From contig JBARRR010000041.1 in NCBI GenBank assembly GCA_049644325.1, forward strand, positions 11,929-75,928: a stretch of DNA of 64,000 nucleotides, given 5' to 3'. A program made the position numbers and the translations under genes. Of the stretch, positions 1,242-62,894 are shown piece after piece (within the stretch, counting starts at the first letter, position 1; each line of letters opens with the position of its first letter). Origin of the DNA: Candidatus Dormiibacterota bacterium (GTDB lineage Bacteria > Chloroflexota > Dormibacteria > DASZGP01). The notes below the pieces were generated by a model that was given only the letters and a program-made list of their open reading frames with translations, was not told where the DNA came from and searched no databases.

Positions 1242-3169
1242 CGGTCGGCCAGCTGCTGGTCGTCGCCCTGCTGCTGCCCGTGGCGGGCTTTTTCATCAAC
1301 CGCCTGTACGGCCCGCGCAACCGGGGCACGGTCCAGATCGTGGGGCCGACCGCGGTGGGGCTGAGCTTCCTCCTCTTCCTGCTCGCGGCGCTGTTCTCGG
1401 GCGGTGGGGCAGGGGACCACCTGGTCTACCACTGGCTCACCGGTGCGGGCGGCTCGGCCGCCGGGGTTGCCGTGCCAACCGTCGACGTCAGCCTCTACCT
1501 CGACCCCCTGTCGGTGGTCATGACCCTGGTGGTCACCGGGGTGGGATGCCTGATCCACGTCTATGCCGTCGGCTACATGGACGAGGAGGGCGACGAGGAC
1601 TACGCCCGCTTCTTCGCCCATATGAACCTCTTCATCTTCTCGATGCTCCTGCTGGTCCTGGCCCGCAACTTTGTCCTGCTGACGATCGGATGGGCGCTGG
1701 TCGGTCTCAGCAGCTACCTGCTGATCGGCTTCTATCGCGGACGCCCGGCGGCGGTGGCAGCGGCTCGCAAGGCGTTCGTGATGAACGTGATCGGGGACGT
1801 CGGCATCGCCATCGCGTCCTTCATCGTCTTCCGGGCCACGGGCAGCCTGGACTTCAGCGCCTTCTTTGCGGCGCTGCCCGGCATCGACCAGGGCACGCTC
1901 GAGCTGATCGGCCTCTTCCTCCTGGTGGGCGCGGTCGCCAAGTCGGCCCAGGTGCCCCTCCACACGTGGCTCCCGGACGCGATGGAGGGCCCCACGCCGG
2001 TCTCGGCATTGATCCACGCCGCCACCATGGTCACCGCCGGGGTTTACCTCATCGCTCGCTTCCATCCTCTTTACTCCATCGCCACCAGTGCCGCCACCAC
2101 GGCGGCGATCATCGGCCTGGTGACGGCCTTAATGGCGGCGCTGGTGGCCTGCGTCCAGACCGATATCAAGCGGGTGCTGGCCTACTCCACGATGAGCCAG
2201 ATCGGGTACATGTTCTTTGCCGTCGCCGCCGGCGCGGAGAGCGCGGGGATCTTCCACCTCGTAACCCACGCCTTCTTCAAAGCCCTGCTCTTCCTCGCCG
2301 CGGGCAGCGTGATCCACGCGCTCCACGGCGAGCAGGACATGCGCCGGATGGGCGGCTTGTGGCGGAGGATGCCGGTGACCGGCGCCGTCTTCCTAGTCGG
2401 GGCGCTGGCCCTCGCCGGGGTGATTCCCTTGTCGGGGTCCTTCTCCAAGGACGAGATCATCGGCGCCGGGCTGATCACGGGGCCGGCCGCGCCGCTGGGT
2501 GGCATCGCCCTGGCGCTGGTGGCCGGCCTCACCGGCTACTACATGCTGCGAGCGTTCTGGCTGGTGTTCCTGGCCGAGCCCGCGGGGCAGGCGGTACCTC
2601 AGGGAGAAACGTCGCGGGCCACCGGCCCGCACGACCCCCCAAAGGTCATGGCGGTCCCGGTGCTGATCCTCTGCGTGCTGTCGGCAGTGGCGGGCCTGGT
2701 CATCCAGCCCGGCTTCTGGCACCTGCTCACCGACTACACGGCGGACGTCTTCGGCACCGGGCCTGATCCGTCCCTGGCGATCTCCGCGATCGCCGTCGTT
2801 TTCTCGCTGCTGGTCGTCCTGGTCGGCATCGGCATCGCCTACCAGAGGTTCGGGCGGCCGGAGGTCAGGGCATCCAGCGCCGCCGGTGTGCCGGACACGA
2901 CCTCGGTGCCGGTGCTGGGCCATGCCTTCTATTGGGATCGCGTCTACCAAGCCCTGGTTGTGGGACCGCTGTGGGTCGCCGGCAACACCCTCCTGCGGTT
3001 CTTCGAGCGCCGGGTGATCATCGGCGCCGTCGACGGGGTGGCGGACTTCGCCGCCGCCGCCGGGGCACAGGTCCGACGGTTGCAGAGCGGCTACTTGCGC
3101 GCGTACGCCATGATTTTCGCCGCGGCGGTGTTGGTGGCCCTGCTGGTGGCCGGGGTGGGGCTCCGGTGA
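1238..3169 (+). CDS. nuoL: NADH-quinone oxidoreductase subunit L
   Basis: 643-aa antiporter-like subunit with a long C-terminal amphipathic extension, in the operon position after nuoK. Confidence 0.9.
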   Translation: MTVGQLLVVALLLPVAGFFINRLYGPRNRGTVQIVGPTAVGLSFLLFLLAALFSGGGAGDHLVYHWLTGAGGSAAGVAVPTVDVSLYLDPLSVVMTLVVTGVGCLIHVYAVGYMDEEGDEDYARFFAHMNLFIFSMLLLVLARNFVLLTIGWALVGLSSYLLIGFYRGRPAAVAAARKAFVMNVIGDVGIAIASFIVFRATGSLDFSAFFAALPGIDQGTLELIGLFLLVGAVAKSAQVPLHTWLPDAMEGPTPVSALIHAATMVTAGVYLIARFHPLYSIATSAATTAAIIGLVTALMAALVACVQTDIKRVLAYSTMSQIGYMFFAVAAGAESAGIFHLVTHAFFKALLFLAAGSVIHALHGEQDMRRMGGLWRRMPVTGAVFLVGALALAGVIPLSGSFSKDEIIGAGLITGPAAPLGGIALALVAGLTGYYMLRAFWLVFLAEPAGQAVPQGETSRATGPHDPPKVMAVPVLILCVLSAVAGLVIQPGFWHLLTDYTADVFGTGPDPSLAISAIAVVFSLLVVLVGIGIAYQRFGRPEVRASSAAGVPDTTSVPVLGHAFYWDRVYQALVVGPLWVAGNTLLRFFERRVIIGAVDGVADFAAAAGAQVRRLQSGYLRAYAMIFAAAVLVALLVAGVGLR

Positions 3170-4647
3170 TCCTCCTCGTCGCGCTGCTGCTGCCGGCCCT
3201 GGCGGCGGTGATTCTGCCCCTGGTGCCCAGGGACCAGGCCCGCTCCCTGGCGATCGTGGCCGCCCTGCTGGAGCTGGTCGTCAGCCTGGTGGTGCTGCAG
3301 ACGGCCGCCACCGGTACCACCCTGCAGCTGACCCAGGCGTGGGCTCCCGAGGCCGGCCTCAACCTGCGCCTGGCGGCAGACGGCGTCTCGGCCAGCCTGC
3401 TGGCACTCAGCGCCCTGATCGGGTTCCTCGCCCTCCTCGCCACCCGCATCGAGCGAATAAACCGTCCGCGGGTCTTCGTAGCCCTGCTGCTGCTCATCGA
3501 GACCGGCACCGCGGGCGTCGTGCTGGCCCGCGACCTGGTCCTCTTCTACGTCTTCTGGGAGGCGGTGCTGGTGCCGTTCTTCATCCTGATTGCGATGTAC
3601 GGGGAGGGCCGCCGCCAGTACGCCGCCATCAAGCTGATGATCTACACCGGGGCCGGATCGCTGGCAATGCTGGTCGCCATCCTCGTCATCTTCACCGCCC
3701 ACGGCGCCGGCACCACCAGCTTCGCCCTCGACCAGCTGGCCCAAACGCCACTGACCAACAACAGCCTGGTCCTCGGTCTTGGCGCCGCGGACCTGGCCTT
3801 CCTCGGCTTCGCCCTGGCCTTCGCCATCAAGACCCCGCTCTTCCCGCTGCACGGCTGGCTCGCTGACGCCTACACGTCGGCGCCGACCCCGGTGGTCATG
3901 GTGCTGGCGGGAGTCGTGTCCAAGCTCGGACCCTACGGCTTCTACCGGGTCGCCATCCCGCTGCTGCCAGCCTCGGCCCAACGCTTCGGGCCGCTGCTAA
4001 TGACGCTGGCCGCGGTTGGCATCGTCTACGGCGCCCTGCTCGCCCTGCGCCAGGACGACGCCAAGCGAATGGTCTCCTACCTGAGCCTGAGCCACATGTG
4101 CTTCATCACGCTGGGGATCGTCGGGCTCACATCGGCGGGGATCGCCGGGGGGCTGCTCCAGATGATCAACCACGGCATCCTGATCAGCGCCCTTTTCTTC
4201 ATCGTGGGGCACTTTGAAGCCCGTCTCGGGACGCGCAGCCTTGGCGCGATGTCCGGACTTGCCCGCCATGCCCCGGCGCTGACGGCGGTCTTCCTGGTCG
4301 TCGCCCTGGCCACCCTCGGCCTGCCCGGCCTTAACGGCTTCGTCGGCGAGTACCTGATCATGCTGGGCACATACACACGTTCCTGGTGGCTGCTGCTGGT
4401 GGCCGCCAGCGGGGTGGTGCTGGCGGCCTGGTACACACTTCGCTTCTTCCAGGGGACGATGGCGGGGCGACCCAGCGCCGATGACACCGGGGAGGTTGCC
4501 GCCGCCGAGCTGTCGGCCGGCGACCTCTGGGTGCTGCTGCCGCTGGCCGCGCTGGCGGTATTGATCGGTGTCTACCCGGCCCCACTGGTGTCGGCCATCA
4601 ACGCCAGCGTGAGCGCCATCGCCGGTGCCCTGGGGGCGGGGGCATGA
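3166..4647 (+). CDS. nuoM: NADH-quinone oxidoreductase subunit M
   Basis: Antiporter-like membrane subunit. A GTG start at 3166 overlaps the nuoL stop (GTGA). The longer ORF from 2932 is an upstream frame extension inside nuoL. Confidence 0.85.
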   Translation: MILLVALLLPALAAVILPLVPRDQARSLAIVAALLELVVSLVVLQTAATGTTLQLTQAWAPEAGLNLRLAADGVSASLLALSALIGFLALLATRIERINRPRVFVALLLLIETGTAGVVLARDLVLFYVFWEAVLVPFFILIAMYGEGRRQYAAIKLMIYTGAGSLAMLVAILVIFTAHGAGTTSFALDQLAQTPLTNNSLVLGLGAADLAFLGFALAFAIKTPLFPLHGWLADAYTSAPTPVVMVLAGVVSKLGPYGFYRVAIPLLPASAQRFGPLLMTLAAVGIVYGALLALRQDDAKRMVSYLSLSHMCFITLGIVGLTSAGIAGGLLQMINHGILISALFFIVGHFEARLGTRSLGAMSGLARHAPALTAVFLVVALATLGLPGLNGFVGEYLIMLGTYTRSWWLLLVAASGVVLAAWYTLRFFQGTMAGRPSADDTGEVAAAELSAGDLWVLLPLAALAVLIGVYPAPLVSAINASVSAIAGALGAGA

Positions 4648-33333: not shown

Positions 33334-33639
33334 GTGAGTTTCCAGGACCGAACCCTAACCTGTCGCGATTGCGGCCAACAGTTCACATTCACCAGCGGCG
33401 AGCAGGATTTCTACGCCTCACGCGGCCTGACCAATGACCCCAGCCGTTGCCCGGACTGCCGGGCGATCCGGCGCGGCCAGAGTGGTGGCGGTGGCGGTGG
33501 CGGCCGTACGCGCGAGATGTTCGACGTCGTTTGCAGCAACTGCGGCAAGGACACCCAGGTGCCCTTCCAGCCGACCTCGGGCCGGCCGGTGTACTGCAGC
33601 GACTGCTTTGCCCAGCAGCCCCGGAACAGCTACCGCTAG
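33334..33639 (+). CDS. four-CxxC zinc-ribbon protein (paralog A)
   Basis: CRDCG...CPDCR...CSNCG...CSDCF. A GGAGG Shine-Dalgarno sits 8 nt upstream of the GTG start. An internal (GGT GGC)n poly-Gly linker is present. Confidence 0.6.
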   Translation: MSFQDRTLTCRDCGQQFTFTSGEQDFYASRGLTNDPSRCPDCRAIRRGQSGGGGGGGRTREMFDVVCSNCGKDTQVPFQPTSGRPVYCSDCFAQQPRNSYR

Positions 33640-33642
33640 CCC

Positions 33643-33930
33643 GTGGCCAGTCGCGGAGTCGACGAAGTCCTGATGCCAGGCCAGGTCGCAGCCCTGCAGA
33701 AACGCATCGAGGTGCTGGTCCCCGACCGGGAGCGGCGTCTGCGCGACCTCCAGGCTGCAACTGAGGAGGCGGCCTCGATCTCGAAGGCGGGGGGTGACTC
33801 CCGCGGGGCGGAGCGTGCCCTCAAGCGCGCCGCACGGCTGCGCTCGGAGGCGGCTGCCATCACCAATGAGATGGCCACACTGGAGAGCCTGGTCGCCGCG
33901 CGACTGGCGCAATCGCCAAGACCGTACTGA
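33643..33930 (+). CDS. hypothetical coiled-coil protein
   Basis: 95-aa ORF located 4 nt after the zinc-ribbon gene. Confidence 0.35.
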   Translation: MASRGVDEVLMPGQVAALQKRIEVLVPDRERRLRDLQAATEEAASISKAGGDSRGAERALKRAARLRSEAAAITNEMATLESLVAARLAQSPRPY

Positions 33931-51900: not shown

Positions 51901-51977
51901 CGGCGAGTGGCGCAGCTCGGTAGCGCACCAGTCTGGGGGACTGGGGGTCGCAGGTTCAAATCCTGTCTCGCCGACCA
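51901..51977 (+). tRNA. tRNA-Pro (anticodon GGG)
   Basis: Acceptor CGGCGAG/CTCGCCG, anticodon loop CTGGGGG, T-loop GGTTCAAATCC, encoded CCA. Confidence 0.85.
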
Positions 51978-55326: not shown

Positions 55327-57240
55327 ATGTTTCCTCGTACTGATGTTCGCCATGCCTTGAAAAAGGTCGCCCTCGGCCTTATGGCCGTTACCACGGTGTC
55401 GCCGGCGCTGCTCGCGCCGCTGCCCGCGCGGGCCGACTCGATCCAGGACCAGCTGGCGGCGCTGCAGGCCCAGGAGGTCGGCCAGAAGGCGACGCTGGGG
55501 CAGTTGAACGGCCAGCAAGCCTCGGCCCGCGCGATCCTGGACCAGCTCCACGGCGACCTCGGCTCCAAGCAGAGCGACTACGGCCAGGTGCTGGCCCAGG
55601 CCCAGGACCTGGATGACCGCATCAAGGGCTTCGAGGCCCAGGAGAACACCCTGCAGACCGAGCACGATGCCCACGTCCAGAGCTTCGCCCGGGAGGTCCG
55701 CACCCTCTACAAGGCGGGCCCGGGCAGCTGGCTGACCTTCATCTTCAGCGCGGGCAGCTTCTCCGACCTGCTCGACCGCCTCGTCTACCTGACAAGACAG
55801 AGCCGCGCCGACTATGAGAAGGCGCAGCAGCTCAAAGCCGAGCGTGAGGCCCTGGCGTCCCAGCGCGAGAAGACGGCGCAGCTGCGGGCGGCGCTGGCGC
55901 CGCTGATGCAGGAGCTGGCCCAGAAGATGGCGGACGCCCAGAACGCCTTCGACGCTCAGGCCAGCGTGACGTCCGACCTGGAGGCGCGTCAGCGCGCCCA
56001 GCTGGCCGCGCTGCGCGGCACCCAGAACAAGGAGCGCGAGCTGGAGGCCGCGCTGGCCGCCGCCGAGGCGGCCGCCAACGCCGCGGCGCAGAAGGGGAAT
56101 GGCCGCACCTATGGTCCCGTCTGCCCGGCGGCGCCGGCGGGACTGGTCAGCATCTGCGGCCACGGCTGGGGCCACGGCGTCGGCCTCGCGCAGTACGGCG
56201 CCCTGGGCATGGCGCAGGCGGGCATCAGCTGGCCTCAAATCATCGGCAACTTCTACAGCGGCACCTACCTCGGCGGCGTTCCCAATGAGACCGTTCGCGT
56301 CTTCCTGGCGGGGGCCGGACGGACGGTCACGCCGCGCGGGTCGTCCGCCACCATCCAGGACACCGCCGGGAACAACCTCGGCAACATCGGCCAGGACCAG
56401 GGAGTCAACTTCAGCCCCAACGCGGACGGCAGTGTCAGCGCCAGCTGGCCCGGCGGCAACGCCTCGGGACGGCCGCTGCGGCTGGTGCCCAGCGGAGGCA
56501 TCTTCCAGGTCACAGGCACCAACCGCCGCTACCGAGGCGAGGCGTGGGCTGACAACTCATCTGGCTTCCGCATCGTCAACCACGTCGACACCGAGAGCTA
56601 CCTCCAGGGGCTGTCCGAGGTGCCGTCCAGCTGGCCGCTCAACGCCATCGAAGCGCAGATCGTCGCCGCCCGAACGTACGCGCTCTACCACCTCGGCGGT
56701 GGCGCGTATGACCTCGACGATGGCACCAACTCGCAGGTCTACAACGGCGTCGACCGCGAGACCGCCGCCCAGAACGCAGCCGTCAACGCTACCCGCGGCC
56801 AGGGCATCTTCTACCAGGGCAGCATCATCTCGGCCGTCTACTCATCGAGTGACGGTGGCCACACGCAGTGCGCCAGCGCGGTGTGGGGGAACGGGGACAA
56901 CCCCTGCACGCCGCCCTACCTGCGGGGCGTGATCGACAACTACGACGTCTCCCCGCTGCACACCTGGTACACACCCCCCCACACGTGGGCCCAGATCCAG
57001 GCGTACCTCGGGTCCACCTACAACGCCGGCGCCTGCGGCTCTCTCACTGGCCTGGACCTGTCCGACCGCGACGCCTCCAAGCGCCTCAACCACGTGCGCA
57101 TGGTCGGGACATCGGGAACCTGCACGGTCACCCCGGGCGCGTTCATCCGCGCCATCAACGCCGGGTCGCCGGCTGACTTTATCGTCTATGGCGACATGTT
57201 CGGCACCACCCCGGGGAACCGTGCCTGGCCTTACTGGTAG
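55327..57240 (+). CDS. secreted SpoIID/LytB-domain protein with long N-terminal coiled coil
   Basis: Signal peptide, an Ala/Gln/Leu-rich coiled coil of about 250 aa, and a SpoIID-like core 'GHGWGHGVGLAQYGALGMA'. Confidence 0.75.
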   Translation: MFPRTDVRHALKKVALGLMAVTTVSPALLAPLPARADSIQDQLAALQAQEVGQKATLGQLNGQQASARAILDQLHGDLGSKQSDYGQVLAQAQDLDDRIKGFEAQENTLQTEHDAHVQSFAREVRTLYKAGPGSWLTFIFSAGSFSDLLDRLVYLTRQSRADYEKAQQLKAEREALASQREKTAQLRAALAPLMQELAQKMADAQNAFDAQASVTSDLEARQRAQLAALRGTQNKERELEAALAAAEAAANAAAQKGNGRTYGPVCPAAPAGLVSICGHGWGHGVGLAQYGALGMAQAGISWPQIIGNFYSGTYLGGVPNETVRVFLAGAGRTVTPRGSSATIQDTAGNNLGNIGQDQGVNFSPNADGSVSASWPGGNASGRPLRLVPSGGIFQVTGTNRRYRGEAWADNSSGFRIVNHVDTESYLQGLSEVPSSWPLNAIEAQIVAARTYALYHLGGGAYDLDDGTNSQVYNGVDRETAAQNAAVNATRGQGIFYQGSIISAVYSSSDGGHTQCASAVWGNGDNPCTPPYLRGVIDNYDVSPLHTWYTPPHTWAQIQAYLGSTYNAGACGSLTGLDLSDRDASKRLNHVRMVGTSGTCTVTPGAFIRAINAGSPADFIVYGDMFGTTPGNRAWPYW

Positions 57241-57601
57241 GCGTCTTCTCGCCTCCGTAGGCCTGGGCTTCTTCGGCGGCCTCTCCAGCGGCCTGCTCGG
57301 CATCGGGGGCGGCATCATCATGGTGCCCGGGATGACGACGCTGCTGGCGATGTCGCAACGTCGTGCGGTGGCGAACTCGCTGCTGGCGATAGTCCCGATA
57401 TCGATCGTTGGCGTCGCCGTCTACTACCTGGGCAGTGGCCACCCCCAGGTCGACCTGCGGCTTGCGGCGGTGCTGGCTATCGGCGCCGTCATCGGGGCGC
57501 CCCTGGGGGCCGCCATCGCGTACCGCGTGCCGGAGCGAGCGCTGCGGGTCACCCTCGGCGTGCTGGCGATCCTGGTCGCCATCAGGCTCCTCCTGCCTTG
57601 A
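57188..57601 (+). CDS. TSUP/TauE-SafE family half-transporter (N-terminal four-TM repeat unit)
   Basis: 'GLLGIGGGIIMVP' signature. The alternative GTG start at 57221 avoids most of the overlap with the upstream gene. Confidence 0.6.
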   Translation: MATCSAPPRGTVPGLTGRRLLASVGLGFFGGLSSGLLGIGGGIIMVPGMTTLLAMSQRRAVANSLLAIVPISIVGVAVYYLGSGHPQVDLRLAAVLAIGAVIGAPLGAAIAYRVPERALRVTLGVLAILVAIRLLLP

Positions 57602-58002
57602 CCGGCCCGGAGGTCATCATCGCCCTGCTGACCGGGCTGGTCGCGGGCGCGATCTCGGGCGCGCTCGGCGTCGGTGGCGGCGCGATTTTGGTGCCGGCCA
57701 TGGTCCTGCTGCTTGGCGCGGGCCAGGAGACCGCCCAGGGCACGTCGCTGCTGGTCATCCTGCCAACGGCGCTGGCGGGGGCGTACTCCCATTTCCGGCG
57801 CGGCTCGCTGGATTTCAGCCCCACCTGGATCATCGGATTGGTGGGCGCGGCGGCCGCAGCCGGGGGCGCCTTCATCGCCCTCCACCTGGGCAGCTCGACC
57901 CTCCGAATCGTCTTCGCGGTGTTCCTGGTGGTGATGGGCTTGCGGGAGATCCTGCGCCGCTCCGCGGCCGTCGAGGAGCCCGCGTCGAGCACCCGTTCGT
58001 AG
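57598..58002 (+). CDS. TSUP/TauE-SafE family half-transporter (second four-TM repeat unit)
   Basis: 'GALGVGGGAILVP' signature. A TTG start overlaps the upstream stop (TTGA). Confidence 0.6.
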   Translation: MTGPEVIIALLTGLVAGAISGALGVGGGAILVPAMVLLLGAGQETAQGTSLLVILPTALAGAYSHFRRGSLDFSPTWIIGLVGAAAAAGGAFIALHLGSSTLRIVFAVFLVVMGLREILRRSAAVEEPASSTRS

Positions 58003-58422: not shown

Positions 58423-58475
58423 CCCGACCGCGCGGGGCCGGCGAGCAGAGTGAAGGGGAGGCAACGGTTTTGCCG

Positions 58476-58799
58476 ATGAGGGTCGAAGACCCGGGAGATC
58501 TCTCCGGGCCACAACCCCCACCGGGCCAACCGCCGCTACCGGCTGACCAGCCTGCGACAGGACACCACGACGTCGCCGGAGACGTTGCCGGAGACGTTGC
58601 CGGAGACGTCGGCGGTGAGGTGGTCGGTGACGTGGCCAGCGGCGGCCTGGGCTGTCTTGGCAACATGCTCAGCGGCTGCGATTGCAGCGGCCTGAGCTGC
58701 GTCCTGGTGCTCGGTGCCGCGGCGGCGGCGGGGCTTGTACTCTATCGGTCGGTTGATAGGTCGCGGCGGGGAACAGAAGGGGACCAGCCATGCCAATGA
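58476..58799 (+). CDS. small Pro/acidic + (DVxG)6 + Cys-cluster + TM protein
   Basis: Starts 'MRVEDP' after a GAAGGGGAGG Shine-Dalgarno. A 12-bp x 6 tandem repeat is followed by 'GCLGNMLSGCDCSGLSC', then a hydrophobic helix and an Arg-rich end. Confidence 0.4.
   Translation: MRVEDPGDLSGPQPPPGQPPLPADQPATGHHDVAGDVAGDVAGDVGGEVVGDVASGGLGCLGNMLSGCDCSGLSCVLVLGAAAAAGLVLYRSVDRSRRGTEGDQPCQ
58569..58640 (+). repeat. 12-bp x 6 tandem repeat (gacgt[ct]gccgga) encoding (DVxG)6
   Basis: Visible directly in the sequence. It is coding, not a CRISPR array. Confidence 0.8.
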
Positions 58800-59068
58800 G
58801 GGTCGATGACACACCTGAGGGAGGAACCCCGGACCCGGGCGCGGCACCGGTGCAGGGCGCACCCGGTGCCGAGGAGTCGGAAGAGGAAAAGAAGAAGAAA
58901 AGAGGCGGAGATGACGGCGTACTCGAGGATGCGGCCGAAGCCGCGGGCTGGGGATGCGCGATCCTCTCCTGTTTCGACTGCCTGTCCGTACTGGCGATCA
59001 GCGCGGTGACAACCGCGGTGGTGGTCGAGCGCGCGCGTCGGAGGCGGAGGCTGGCGGAGGCGCTGTAG
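58790..59068 (+). CDS. small Pro/acidic + Cys-cluster + TM protein (tandem paralog)
   Basis: Starts 'MPMRVDDTP'. It lacks the repeat and has a Glu/Lys-rich stretch, then 'GWGCAILSCFDC', a TM helix and 'RRRRRL'. Its start overlaps the upstream stop by 10 nt. Confidence 0.4.
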   Translation: MPMRVDDTPEGGTPDPGAAPVQGAPGAEESEEEKKKKRGGDDGVLEDAAEAAGWGCAILSCFDCLSVLAISAVTTAVVVERARRRRRLAEAL

Positions 59069-59071
59069 CCG

Positions 59072-60037
59072 TCAGCGGCGCCGGTTGCCGCTGTGGAAGT
59101 CCTTGTGCACCTGCCGCAGCTGCGGGTTGGTCACGTGGGTGTAGACCTGCGTGGTCGCCAGGTTGGCGTGGCCCAGCATCTCCTGGACGGACCGCAGGTC
59201 GGCGCCGTTGAAGAGCAGGTCAGTGGCGAACGAGTGGCGCAGGGTGTGGGGGGTGGCCTTGATGCCAAGCCCTGCCAGCCGGACGTACTTGGCCACCATG
59301 CGCTCGACCGAGCGGGCGCTGAGCCGCCAGCCGGCGCCGTCCATGGCGGCACGGCCGGCAGCGGTGGTCTCATCGGCGGCGTGGCCCCGGTAGCGGATGA
59401 AGAGCGGCTTGAAGCGGTCCTTGCGCATACCGATGTAGGCCTTGAGGCTGTCAGCCGCGGCGTCGGTCATGAAGACCACGCGGGGCTTGCGGCCCTTGCC
59501 GATGACGGCAAACTCGCGGCTTTCGAAGTTCATCTGCTCCCGGTCGAGCGCCACCAGCTCCGACACCCGGAGCCCGGTCGAGAACAGCAGCTCGAGGATG
59601 GCGCGGTCGCGCATCCCCGGCTCGGCGCTGGCGTCGACGGCGCCCAGCAGGCGGGTCACCTGGCGGGAGTCCAGGAACTTGAGGCTGCGGCCGCCGCCCT
59701 TGCCCAGCTCGATACGGTCTGGTGCAAGGGCGTCCTCGCCCGAACGCGTCAGGAACCGCAGCAAGGACCGCAGCGCCACCAGGTATGACGTCTGTGTCCC
59801 GCGTGCCAGGTTGCGGTGGGTGGTGGGGGAGACGTAGCGGTGGAGGTGGACCCGGTAGGAGCGCGCCTTGTCCGCGGTCAGCTCCTCGGCGGAACCGACG
59901 CCCTCGGTGGCCGCCCAGGCGGTGAAGTGGTCGAGGTACTGCTGGTACATCCGCACTGTCAATGGCGACAGGTTGCGATCCACCTCGCAGTGCTCGAGGA
60001 AGGCTCGGACCTGGTCGTGAAGACGTGTGGAGGACAT
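59072..60037 (-). CDS. tyrosine site-specific recombinase (XerC/XerD family)
   Basis: 'HTLRHSFATDLLFNGADLRSVQEMLGHANLATTQVYTHV' C-terminal catalytic box (R..H..R..Y). The start is taken at Met 'MSSTRLHDQ'. Confidence 0.85.
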   Translation of the reverse strand: MSSTRLHDQVRAFLEHCEVDRNLSPLTVRMYQQYLDHFTAWAATEGVGSAEELTADKARSYRVHLHRYVSPTTHRNLARGTQTSYLVALRSLLRFLTRSGEDALAPDRIELGKGGGRSLKFLDSRQVTRLLGAVDASAEPGMRDRAILELLFSTGLRVSELVALDREQMNFESREFAVIGKGRKPRVVFMTDAAADSLKAYIGMRKDRFKPLFIRYRGHAADETTAAGRAAMDGAGWRLSARSVERMVAKYVRLAGLGIKATPHTLRHSFATDLLFNGADLRSVQEMLGHANLATTQVYTHVTNPQLRQVHKDFHSGNRRR

Positions 60038-60112
60038 GACCGCCCACCAGTGTAAAGGGGGGGATGCCATTTTGCGACGTTTAACCTGGGGGAGGTGGTC
60101 TCAGGCGCGAAG

Positions 60113-60589
60113 CTACTCGCCCATGTCCTCCTGGAAGAAGCGAACCGGGGCTTCGGTCGGTGGGAGCGTCCGGTCGCCAATGGCCGCGACGAACAGCAAC
60201 AGCGTCGAGATCACCATGGTGATGGCCGCGGCGCCGGCCAGGATGACGTTGCGGCTGTCGACGTCGCGGAAGCTGAGGGAGACGGCGGCGACGTACAGCA
60301 TCGCCAGCGCGAAGATGATGGTGAGACCAATGGCGTGGGGCGCCCAGGCCAGGCTCAGCGACCGGCGAGCATGGTGGATCATGCCGATGATCGGCAGCGG
60401 CGCCCAGGCAATGACGAAGCAGGCAATGCTCACGGGGACGGCGTAACGGCCGATGTCGCAGCTGATGTCGCAGAAGGCGGGGTTGACGATGCTGAGGAAG
60501 ATGAAGAACATGCGCGCGCTGAGGAAGAAGGCGAACCCGCCCGCCATCCAGCCGAATATCTCCGCAATGCGGAGCACGCCGCGCCGCAT
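60113..60589 (-). CDS. hypothetical polytopic membrane protein
   Basis: 158 aa with about four TM helices. It is favoured over the overlapping 411-aa Arg/Gly-rich frame. Confidence 0.45.
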   Translation of the reverse strand: MRRGVLRIAEIFGWMAGGFAFFLSARMFFIFLSIVNPAFCDISCDIGRYAVPVSIACFVIAWAPLPIIGMIHHARRSLSLAWAPHAIGLTIIFALAMLYVAAVSLSFRDVDSRNVILAGAAAITMVISTLLLFVAAIGDRTLPPTEAPVRFFQEDMGE

Positions 60590-61379: not shown

Positions 61380-62894
61380 TTAGCGCCGCAAGGCTCGGAT
61401 CCGCCTCCACCCCACCGCGGTCAGCCCCAGCAGTCCGACCCCGACGGCTGCCGGAACCAGCGGGGCTGGGCTGGGCGGCGCTGGTGTCGAACTCGTGTTC
61501 GGTAGGTTGGTGGCCGCCGCCAGCGGCTCCTGCGTCGGGATGACTGGGTTCGCGGGAACGGTCACTTCACCGCCCGATCCAGGGGTCTCGCCGCAGTTGG
61601 AGAGGACGTCGACACCGTCGACGTATGTCCCTGGAGGCACGGTTGCCCCGACCAGGACGACCAGCTTCTCCACCAGCGGATCGCCGCCCCCGAAGCCGTT
61701 GTTGCTTCGGAATGTCAGCGTTTGCTGCCCATTGACTGTACCCAGGAGGGGATTGGTGCCCAACACGCCAGATGCGCTGACCAGGGTGAAGCCCGGTGGG
61801 AGGGTGTCAACCACCTGTGTTGGGCTGCAGGAGTCGGTGTTGGTGATGCTGATCGTGTAGGTGATCTGGTCCCCCGGGTGCGCCGTCGGGAACATGGCAC
61901 CTGGATCAGTTCCACTTGGCGTGACGACGGTCTTGGTGATCGGGTTGCCAACGCAGGCGCCGGGGATTGCTGGCGTGTCGCTGGGGCACAGGGGGGTGAC
62001 GGGCTGGTCGCACACTGCCCGACTGCTGGTGTGCCCAAGGATGATGTCCGCCTGAAGCAGGGCCTGTCCAGCAACCACGACATCGAGAATGATGTGGGCC
62101 GCGTTGACTATCAGGCCGTGGCCGGTTTGGACCGAGCCACCGGTGGCACCTGACAGGTCTTCGAACTTCTGCTCGTTAAGGATGACCTTGCCGAGACTGA
62201 CCGGAACCTGGCCGACAAGGTTCAAGTTGACTGTGGTGTTGGGCGGAATGTTGGTGAGCCCAGTGAGCGGGTTGATGCCGCCAATGGTCAGTGCCGCAAT
62301 GGTGGTAACGCCGACCGGCGTGCTGGTGCAGCTCTGGGTCAACGATTGAGAGCTGATGTCCCGGGTGGTGATGGCAGCCACCCCTCCGGACACGGCCCCC
62401 AGGAGCCCGGCAGCGGCGATGGTGCTGCAGCCATTACCCCCGGTGAGCGGCCCGCTGACAAAGGGGGCGGTTACCGCCACATTCGGCAAACAGTCGGTGC
62501 TGGGGGTTGACGACCCCGCACCGTTGTACCCCGGAACAAACGCCTTGCCGGTGTCGTCGGTGACGTTGATGTTGTCCACCAGCCCCGGGACGCAGTTGGG
62601 GGCACAGATCACGGTGCCGGATTCGTTGAATTTGGGATTAGGAGGCGACGGTACGGTCGCAAGGGCTGGGGCGATCGGCGCCGGGTTGATCGGGATGGCG
62701 CCCAGCACCGAAACGTTGGCGCCCAGGGCGTACGAGTCGCCCTCCGCTGAGACCGGCGCGGGTGGAGCTGCAGCGGCCGGTCGCGGCGGCACCATGGCGA
62801 AGCTGGCGACTGCTGCGACGGCCCCGACCAGGACAACCAGCCAGCGCTTCAAATCCGGCGATGAGGTCGATCCATCCGCGGCGGAAACTCGCAC
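61380..62894 (-). CDS. secreted DUF11-repeat surface protein with C-terminal TM anchor
   Basis: Signal peptide, a DUF11-like segment 'TYTISITNTDSCSPTQVVDTLPPGFTLVSASG', and a C-terminus 'LPNTSST...AAVGVGLLGLTAVGWRRIRALRR'. Confidence 0.6.
   Translation of the reverse strand: MRVSAADGSTSSPDLKRWLVVLVGAVAAVASFAMVPPRPAAAAPPAPVSAEGDSYALGANVSVLGAIPINPAPIAPALATVPSPPNPKFNESGTVICAPNCVPGLVDNINVTDDTGKAFVPGYNGAGSSTPSTDCLPNVAVTAPFVSGPLTGGNGCSTIAAAGLLGAVSGGVAAITTRDISSQSLTQSCTSTPVGVTTIAALTIGGINPLTGLTNIPPNTTVNLNLVGQVPVSLGKVILNEQKFEDLSGATGGSVQTGHGLIVNAAHIILDVVVAGQALLQADIILGHTSSRAVCDQPVTPLCPSDTPAIPGACVGNPITKTVVTPSGTDPGAMFPTAHPGDQITYTISITNTDSCSPTQVVDTLPPGFTLVSASGVLGTNPLLGTVNGQQTLTFRSNNGFGGGDPLVEKLVVLVGATVPPGTYVDGVDVLSNCGETPGSGGEVTVPANPVIPTQEPLAAATNLPNTSSTPAPPSPAPLVPAAVGVGLLGLTAVGWRRIRALRR

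Follow-up and report, generated by a model that had tools for sequence, protein, structure and literature searches.

A zinc ribbon-recombinase junction with two small genes

This analysis concerns two small open reading frames, ORF1 and ORF2, in a 64,000-nucleotide stretch of Candidatus Dormiibacterota DNA (GenBank assembly GCA_049644325.1, contig JBARRR010000041.1, positions 11,929 to 75,928, forward strand; hereafter the window, G+C 67.7%). They lie in tandem between a zinc-ribbon gene, here called ZnR, and a convergent gene for a Xer-type tyrosine recombinase (Table 1). Their products, we suggest, are small proteins that cross the membrane once and form an undescribed family, with ORF2 the older member and ORF1 a younger and very divergent one.

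The two ORFs overlap by 10 nucleotides, the TGA stop codon of ORF1 (58797-58799) overlapping the second ATG of ORF2. Purine-rich boxes of the GAAGGGGA(GG) type precede both starts, both proteins open with M(P)MRV(E/D)D, and the start regions are identical at 18 of 20 nucleotides (TGCCRATGAGGGTCGAWGAC). Each protein consists of a proline-rich, acidic N-terminal region, a cysteine cluster, one hydrophobic segment, and a basic tail. A preliminary description of this DNA, made by reading its sequence, had given the coordinates, lengths, overlap, starts and shared architecture of the pair, and in all of these it was accurate; so too in naming the flanks as a zinc-ribbon gene with a paralogue, which lies at 33334-33639, and a tyrosine recombinase. 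Its claim of four to five clustered cysteines in each protein holds for ORF1, with four in the cluster and one in a non-conserved tail, and fails for ORF2, which has three (C56, C61, C64).

Table 1. Features of the ORF1-ORF2 locus, in window coordinates
Feature	Coordinates	Strand	Remarks
ZnR, zf_Tbcl / CxxC-x17-CxxC zinc-ribbon gene, 94 aa	58138..58422	+	Upstream neighbour of ORF1/ORF2, probable operon partner
Shine-Dalgarno-like box GAAGGGGAGG ahead of ORF1	58452..58461	+	Read from sequence; 8 nt to TTG 58470, 14 nt to ATG 58476
ORF1	58470..58799 (TTG, 109 aa, MPMRVED...) or 58476..58799 (ATG, 107 aa)	+	Putative divergent paralogue of ORF2
Imperfect 12-bp x 6 tandem repeat in ORF1	58569..58640	+	Encodes DVAG DVAG DVAG DVGG EVVG DVAS
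ORF1 Cys cluster GCLGNMLSGCDCSGLSC	58650..58700	+	Residues 59-75 counted from ATG
ORF1 predicted transmembrane segment, then basic tail RSVDRSRRG	58686..58742	+	Residues 71-89, Kyte-Doolittle 19-mer mean 2.12
Shine-Dalgarno-like box GAAGGGGA ahead of ORF2, within ORF1 3' end	58776..58783	+	6 nt before ATG 58790
ORF2, 92-aa conserved small protein, predicted in the membrane; family founder	58790..59068	+	
ORF2 invariant motif GWGC-x4-CFDC	58946..58981	+	Residues 53-64
ORF2 predicted transmembrane segment and Arg-rich tail ERARRRRRLAEAL	58970..59065	+	Transmembrane residues 61-79, Kyte-Doolittle 2.09
Xer-type tyrosine recombinase	59072..60070	-	PF00589 and PF02899; convergent to ORF2, with 3 bp between the two stop codons

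Conservation of ORF2 and history of the junction

Judged by comparison with its relatives, ORF2 is certainly a real gene under strong purifying selection. A protein search returned homologues in six clusters (P0001-P0006, 46-99% identity), and those with a source name come from Candidatus Dormibacterota metagenome-assembled genomes (MAGs), one of them labelled Chloroflexota. Among close relatives the ratio of nonsynonymous to synonymous divergence (dN/dS, Nei-Gojobori) is 0.09-0.16 at synonymous divergences (dS) of 0.25-0.8, and synonymous changes are in excess at binomial P = 5e-9 to 8e-7. Both halves of the protein are constrained, the disordered N-terminal half at a ratio of 0.10-0.32 and the half with the cysteines and the transmembrane (TM) segment, among close relatives, at 0.02-0.19. 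Alignments show invariant columns at the N-terminal M-R-V, a lysine patch, D47-A48, AAGWGC-x4-CFDCLS, and three arginines of the tail. The preliminary description had allowed that the ORFs might be spurious and have no homologues, which for ORF2 is answered by this selection; ORF1, found in two close lineages only, is a narrower case to which we return.

The locus is a divergence hotspot. Between the window and locus L001 of a relative (relatives' loci carry L numbers), identity is 72-87% at the locus and about 95% in the flanks, and the dS of ORF2 (L001 4631-4906) is 0.57, against 0.05-0.19 in six flanking genes, a 3-10-fold excess. The hotspot likely reflects synonymous sites that are less constrained by codon bias; the high dS of ORF2 may stem from such weak codon bias, or from exchange of alleles by recombination.

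Homologues of this architecture, for which the preliminary description had proposed a profile search, proved to exist in a single subclade of Candidatus Dormibacterota. A full HMMER search of 1.84 billion cluster representatives with a six-member profile hidden Markov model (HMM) recovered three family clusters (P0004, P0006 and the truncated P0008) and one further match, marginal and unrelated; only 2 of 185,579 GTDB species genomes carry the family. ORF2 has no match in Pfam, NCBIfam, PADLOC, PHROGs or the PDB sequences, and the libraries gave for ORF1 only a sub-threshold, 15-bit NCBIfam match to the DLW-39 family (E = 0.015), which is not a family of ribosomally synthesised and post-translationally modified peptides (RiPPs). 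The single PDB match, to ribosomal P1, was discarded as acidic low-complexity composition only. The viral contigs, phage genomes and plasmids searched held no relatives. On these searches, the family is an undescribed one confined to that subclade.

The gene order around ORF2 dates its arrival relative to its neighbours. In ORF2-bearing loci on sufficiently long contigs, the order is a SpoIID-like gene, TauE (as two half-genes), ZnR, ORF2, the convergent Xer, a gene for a 158-aa membrane protein, and a DinB-like gene, with small variations in L008 and L019; ZnR-ORF2-Xer itself is present in L001-L011, L018 and L019. Three more distant Dormibacteria (L015, L016, L017) have the order SpoIID-TauE-ZnR-Xer without ORF2. 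There ZnR (69-73% identity) abuts the orthologous Xer (76-78%), the two genes overlapping by 8 bp at one extreme and standing 43 bp apart at the other, and Xer orthologs (76-99% identity) occupy this position in ORF2-bearing and ORF2-less genomes alike. Because ZnR and Xer stand in this order without ORF2, we read the recombinase as a vertically inherited chromosomal ortholog with a housekeeping function, not part of a mobile unit, and ORF2 as a lineage-specific insertion at the convergent ZnR/Xer junction, in the ancestor of the one subclade in which ZnR identity is at least 84%. The best NCBIfam matches of the recombinase are XerC/XerD, with scores below their cut-offs. In L014, a Dormibacterota MAG, a different tyrosine recombinase (2894-3901, +) follows the zinc-ribbon gene on the ZnR strand. 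Its identity with the Xer found elsewhere is 33-37%, and it is not the ortholog of the convergent gene.

This history leaves very little room for the idea, raised in the preliminary description, of a small mobile or phase-variable module, whether a cassette run by the adjacent tyrosine recombinase or one driven by slippage of the repeat in ORF1. The recombinase is indeed adjacent, ORF1 presence and repeat number vary between strains, and the locus is a local divergence hotspot; but Xer is orthologous and syntenic where the ORFs are absent, and the repeat unit and indels are multiples of three, so that no frame is switched. On either side of the locus, inverted and direct repeats are limited to short matches at chance level, and the locus has no tRNA target, the nearest tRNA gene (51901-51977) lying about 6.5 kb away. 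We thus set aside three specific forms of the idea: an invertible switch driven by the recombinase, which lacks inverted repeats of note and whose Xer is in place in genomes without the ORFs; phase variation of the slippage type, given a 12-bp unit and an in-frame difference of 24 bp, although the copy-number polymorphism itself is confirmed; and an integrated mobile element, which has no att-type repeats or tRNA target, a recombinase independent of the ORFs, and no counterpart in viral, phage or plasmid sets.

ZnR is the constant companion of ORF2. It lies directly upstream, on the same strand and at a distance of 29-125 bp, in every ORF2-bearing locus, and its product, identical across seven contigs, matches Pfam PF13451 (E = 1e-21) and PF23477 (E = 2e-19), and also TIGR04272. 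The co-occurrence that the preliminary description had proposed to check runs one way only: ORF2 always follows ZnR, but ZnR occurs without ORF2 in L015-L017. Since the genes share a strand, are separated by gaps of this size and have no terminator-like site between them, we infer that ORF1 and ORF2 are probably co-transcribed with ZnR; the promoter and terminator scan otherwise yielded nothing useful. The second zf_Tbcl zinc ribbon of the window (paralogue A, 33334-33639, +) is 52% identical to ZnR and carries a poly-Gly insert. It is followed after 4 bp by an unrelated 95-aa ORF (33643-33930, +), charged and coiled-coil-like, and has no ORF2-like gene beside it; neither the window nor the fetched loci of relatives contain further paralogues of ORF1 or ORF2.

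ORF1, its tandem repeat and its origin

ORF1 is found in the window, in L003, which is nearly identical to the window, and in L001/L002; in L004, of the window lineage, the contig breaks off after the first 29 ORF1 codons. The single database homologue, P0007, is the L001 copy. ORF1 is absent from L005, L006, L007, L008, L011 and L018, where a short spacer precedes ORF2; ORF1 gives no alignment with the 125-bp spacer of L005-L007, which is not an obvious remnant of it. Given this pattern of presence and absence, and upstream flanks in which the window matches L001 at 97.1% and L005 at 96.4% identity, the most parsimonious history is a single recent gain of ORF1 in the common ancestor of the window and L001.

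The comparison of the two lineages suggests that ORF1 is probably a real gene, and a very young paralogue. Their 24 substitutions fall 6, 5 and 13 on the first, second and third codon positions, giving a dN/dS of 0.27 (13.3 synonymous and 10.7 nonsynonymous differences; P = 0.004), and in a six-frame test only the ORF1 frame has a synonymous excess at P < 0.05 (P = 0.016). A reverse-strand ORF of 108 aa and the +1 frame, which continues the ZnR frame with a high G+C content at third codon positions (GC3), were rejected as candidates; both behave neutrally and contain stops. The indels that separate the lineages, of 24 bp (two repeat units) and 3 bp, keep the frame. In the nucleotide comparison with L001, the Cys/TM segment (58636-58732) reaches 94% identity, and other parts of the locus reach 72-87%. 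The GC3 of ORF1 is 0.60-0.70 in the N-terminal half and 0.77-0.87 in the Cys/TM part, which parallels ORF2: in both ORFs the deficit is concentrated in the N-terminal half (0.64 in ORF2).

An unlikely alternative is that only ORF2 is functional, ORF1 being a decaying or never-functional sequence, such as a recombination scar or a partial copy with the ORF2 start, and the repeat a product of neutral slippage. It would suit the GC3 of 0.69 (about 0.63 in the first half), the confinement of ORF1 to two close lineages with one database homologue, and the dN/dS that rests on 24 changes; yet it must set these against two indels that are both multiples of three, a synonymous excess confined to the ORF1 frame (P = 0.004-0.016), and a Cys/TM segment that is the best-conserved part of the locus. 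The C-terminal tail and stop position do differ between the lineages, as this alternative would have it, but the Shine-Dalgarno box and start motif are intact, and the GC3 profile mirrors that of the validated ORF2. Nor has ORF1 of the window/L003 lineage ever been called as a protein, a reverse-strand ORF being called in L003 instead.

Public annotations of ORF1 conflict accordingly in strand and extent: an 86-aa reverse-strand protein in L003 (2463-2723, -), a truncated 56-aa protein in L002 (4458-4628, +), and a 96-aa protein in L001 (4338-4628, +). The window's own ORF1 protein is absent from a collection of 5.8 billion protein clusters, and neither ORF1 peptide patterns nor a degenerate DNA pattern of the Cys cluster found a match, and hence any additional repeat-number variant, in a metagenome contig collection that evidently lacks the JGI contig L002.

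The tandem repeat had been described as a perfect 12-bp x 6 array. Its position and its encoded peptide stand; it is not perfect, as the units read, in order, GACGTCGCCGGA, GACGTTGCCGGA (twice), GACGTCGGCGGT, GAGGTGGTCGGT and GACGTGGCCAGC. Identity is confined to units 2 and 3, from which unit 1 differs by one base and units 4-6 by three to five; Tandem Repeats Finder describes the array both as 3.4 copies at 96% and as 5.6 at 85%. The expected polymorphism between strains exists: there are six units in the window and L003 and four in L001/L002, DVAG occurring three times in the window lineage and once in L001/L002. The expansion contains the two identical units, a pattern that recent slippage or unequal exchange would produce. 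With a 12-bp unit and all indels multiples of three, the variation alters the length of the N-terminal tail and not the ON/OFF state of the gene. Homologues of ORF2 show small in-frame duplications in the same region, with TPEGG doubled in L006 and a Pro/Ala/Gly insertion in L011; taken with the ORF1 repeat difference, N-tail length variation is a trait of the family, and one that never shifts the reading frame.

The kinship of ORF1 and ORF2 is less clear than their shared design. The ORF2-family HMM aligns ORF1 end to end with 11.9 bits, a score reached by none of 2000 whole-sequence shuffles and by one of 2000 two-segment shuffles, and the two have in common a GxGC, then D-C, LS, the hydrophobic run, and the basic tail. 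Against homology stand 22 of 2000 architecture-preserving (four-segment) shuffles that score as well as ORF1, a BLASTP comparison that is not significant (E = 0.32), and an hhalign comparison with the ORF2 family that gives E = 0.0012 but a probability of only 19%. We regard the homology as weak: the start motif and architecture are the same, and the sequences very divergent. Because the copies differ so strongly while the flanks differ by about 3%, ORF1 is not a fresh in-situ duplicate; more likely, it was brought in from an unsampled divergent relative, or evolved very fast.

Predicted topology, proposed role and rival explanations

With about 100 residues, one TM-length segment, and, for ORF2, conserved coding, both are small single-pass membrane proteins by their sequence properties; insertion into the membrane is predicted. 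The hydrophobic 19-mer, one per member, has a Kyte-Doolittle mean of 2.06-2.24 in eight sequences. In all eight, the 15 residues before it contain no Lys/Arg and one to four Asp/Glu, and the 11-18 residues after it contain three to seven Lys/Arg. The net charge of the N-tail is -4 to -10 across the family, and -8 to -10 in ORF1, whose N-tail has a single basic residue. The positive-inside rule holds that the basic flank of a TM segment stays in the cytoplasm, and from the charge bias it predicts an N-out/C-in orientation for this family. AlphaFold2 models ORF2 as disordered over residues 1-31, with one continuous helix at 42-91 (predicted local distance difference test, pLDDT, 75-82 over 61-90; mean 59), and ORF1 with two low-confidence helices broken at SGCDCS, one of them at 72-101. 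On a helical wheel, C56, D63 and C64 (ORF2 numbering), which are common to both paralogues, lie on one face, and W54, C61, L65, L68 and A72 form a second conserved stripe.

The opposite orientation is rather improbable. As tail-anchored N-in proteins, ORF1 and ORF2 would hold a reduced Cys/Asp cluster at the cytoplasmic face, where it would bind Zn, Fe or Cu, and the N-tail would tether or regulate the ZnR protein at the membrane. The missing signal peptide and the single TM segment near the C-terminus agree with this, as does the KKKK(R) patch in the ORF2 N-tail, which disfavours export, but the arrangement would place three to seven Arg/Lys outside and the acidic flank free of Lys/Arg inside, against the positive-inside rule in eight of eight sequences, and the ORF1 N-tail, with its one basic residue and strong negative charge, is typical of exported N-tails. 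The strict adjacency of ORF2 to a gene for a zinc-binding protein and the conservation of Cys, Asp and Cys on one helix face would likewise fit a tether, whereas sister clades have ZnR but no ORF2, and nothing like ORF2 adjoins paralogue A.

Several other placements of the proteins and their DNA were tried and found no support. They are not lipoproteins: the LSGC of ORF1 (residues 65-68) follows no signal peptide or h-region, the N-termini being acidic and proline-rich, its equivalents in ORF2 homologues are AIFEC/LAFEC, and the lipobox reading of LSGC/ILSC in the ORF1/ORF2 family was rejected. They have the layout of a C-terminal sorting signal, a motif followed by a TM segment and a basic tail, with no match to an NCBIfam CTERM model at E <= 0.1; a sorting signal of the CTERM/LPXTG type is unsupported, as there is no N-terminal signal peptide and the motif occurs only on these 84-98-aa proteins (HMM search of 1.84e9 proteins). 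For an RNA element, Rfam gave sub-threshold chance matches only, the start-codon regions of both ORFs are no more stably folded than shuffled sequence (z = +0.5 and +1.0), and a stable hairpin in L008 is not conserved.

A RiPP-like core had also been proposed, and we found no feature that supports it. In this explanation, to which we attach hardly any credence, the proteins would be RiPP precursors with a conserved MPMRVGD... leader and a core rich in Cys, Ser and Thr, on which enzymes from other parts of the genome would act. Their small size, conserved N-terminus and Cys/Ser/Thr-rich C-terminal half are what a precursor would have, but the putative core is a TM helix with an Arg-rich tail, and no RiPP family in Pfam or NCBIfam matches (ORF2 has no match at all, ORF1 only the sub-threshold DLW-39). 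As the preliminary description had noted for the adjacent genes, no modifying enzyme, protease or exporter occurs among the conserved neighbours (SpoIID, TauE, zf_Tbcl, Xer, the 158-aa membrane protein, DinB) in about 10 loci. As judged from its sequence and surroundings, then, the locus is neither a mobile element nor an invertible switch, and it is no RiPP cluster.

The explanation we favour, with moderate confidence, is that ORF1 and ORF2 are small single-pass membrane proteins, members of an undescribed family of one Dormibacterota subclade, that serve as N-out/C-in accessory subunits. ORF2 was inserted between the gene for a zinc-binding treble-clef protein (zf_Tbcl) and the convergent Xer in the subclade ancestor, and ORF1 was added much later, between ZnR and ORF2, in two closely related lineages, where its 12-bp repeat has expanded or contracted in frame (six against four units) and so changed the length of the N-tail. 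The acidic, disordered N-tail, without Lys/Arg within 15 residues of the helix, would be placed outside the cell and the Arg-rich C-tail in the cytoplasm. At the outer end of the helix, in the outer leaflet, the GxGC...DC face might mediate helix-helix association, bridged by a disulfide or a metal, with the protein itself, its paralogue, or a larger membrane protein as partner. In that case the proteins could be small accessory or regulatory subunits embedded in the membrane.

Beyond the doubts over kinship, several points weigh against this explanation. GC3 in ORF1 and ORF2 (0.69 and about 0.75-0.76) is below the 0.87-0.93 of six neighbouring genes. The coding case for ORF1 comes from one inter-lineage comparison with 24 substitutions, and gene callers disagree on it, with a reverse-strand call in L003 and a truncated one in L002. 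The AlphaFold2 models are of low confidence (mean pLDDT 59-60), the topology is derived from the positive-inside rule alone, and export of the ORF2 N-tail would be impeded by its KKKK(R) patch. The oligomerisation or partner-binding role is one that we infer.

A different account of the same data, which we would give only a minor chance, stresses the recent birth and growth of a new family of membrane micro-proteins. ORF2 would have originated in the convergent gap of about 40 bp, either de novo or out of a source that can no longer be traced, and a second, highly divergent copy would have appeared within the last ~3% of flank divergence. Selection would act on the exposed acidic N-tails as slippage varies them; these tails might form a variable surface element, or else a module that binds a metal or a partner and is connected with the ZnR protein.

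If the proteins are accessory subunits, there is ample precedent. Bacterial small single-pass membrane proteins such as KdpF, AcrZ, MgtS and CydX act as accessory or regulatory subunits (PMC12648545). Like these, ORF1 and ORF2 are short, have one TM helix and no enzymatic domain, and are lineage-restricted, and the class is often missed or miscalled by gene finders. Unlike them, the ORF1/ORF2 family is longer (88-109 aa), has an acidic disordered N-tail of 55-70 residues and the GxGC...DC motif, and shows no sequence relationship to any of them. By analogy, ORF1 and ORF2 would work most like this class, while belonging to none of its families.

Three further comparisons bear on parts of the design. 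The Pf3 coat protein and the ProW N-tail are signal-less N-out/C-in proteins with acidic N-tails, which are translocated in a manner dependent on YidC and the proton motive force. ORF1 and ORF2 resemble them in having no signal peptide, an acidic N-tail, one TM segment, and a basic C-terminal flank, but their N-tails are longer and that of ORF2 has a KKKK patch; the analogy is one of predicted topology only. Tripartite C-terminal sorting signals include LPXTG, PEP-CTERM, and the Cys-containing MYXO-CTERM with its Gly-Cys motif. These too place a short motif, a hydrophobic helix and an Arg cluster at the C-terminus, but ORF1 and ORF2 have no signal peptide, passenger domain or CTERM match (E <= 0.1), and the locus has no sortase-type gene. 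Regulators of the phospholamban/sarcolipin type are small bitopic proteins with a three-Cys membrane helix that function through helix-helix packing. The likeness, a small bitopic protein with a Cys-bearing membrane helix, is a functional analogy only, as those proteins are eukaryotic, unrelated in sequence, and opposite in soluble-domain arrangement and topology.

The locus adds an undescribed family of small, predicted membrane proteins from a poorly known, uncultured soil phylum. ORF1 is a concrete case of a probable gene missed or miscalled by annotation pipelines, since sister assemblies have it truncated or read from the opposite strand. The ZnR-Xer junction offers a well-resolved series of gains, from zero to one to two genes, the last with a repeat-length polymorphism, that could be used as a case study of micro-protein origin. 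It opens no major question: many comparable orphan families exist, and the kind of gene is unremarkable.

Some neighbouring genes have features of their own. The TauE/SafE permease is split over two half-size genes (57188-57601 and 57598-58002, +) with a 4-bp overlap, the first matching positions 124-237 of the Pfam profile and the second positions 2-113; the split is kept in L001, L003, L011, L016 and L017, and L014 and L015 have a single gene of 266-280 aa. The 158-aa protein (60113-60589, -) is a multi-pass membrane protein of no Pfam family, with a Cys/Asp motif, FCDISCDIG, and is syntenic in most relatives; the motif may have a connection with the Cys/Asp face of ORF1 and ORF2. To the right of about 61200, synteny with L001 (there from about 7100) collapses, identity falling from ~95% to ~45%. 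This variable region of the window contains the gene for a 504-aa protein (61380-62894, -) whose C-terminal end passes from LPNTS through a hydrophobic stretch to RRIRALRR, and which resembles a sortase-type surface protein.

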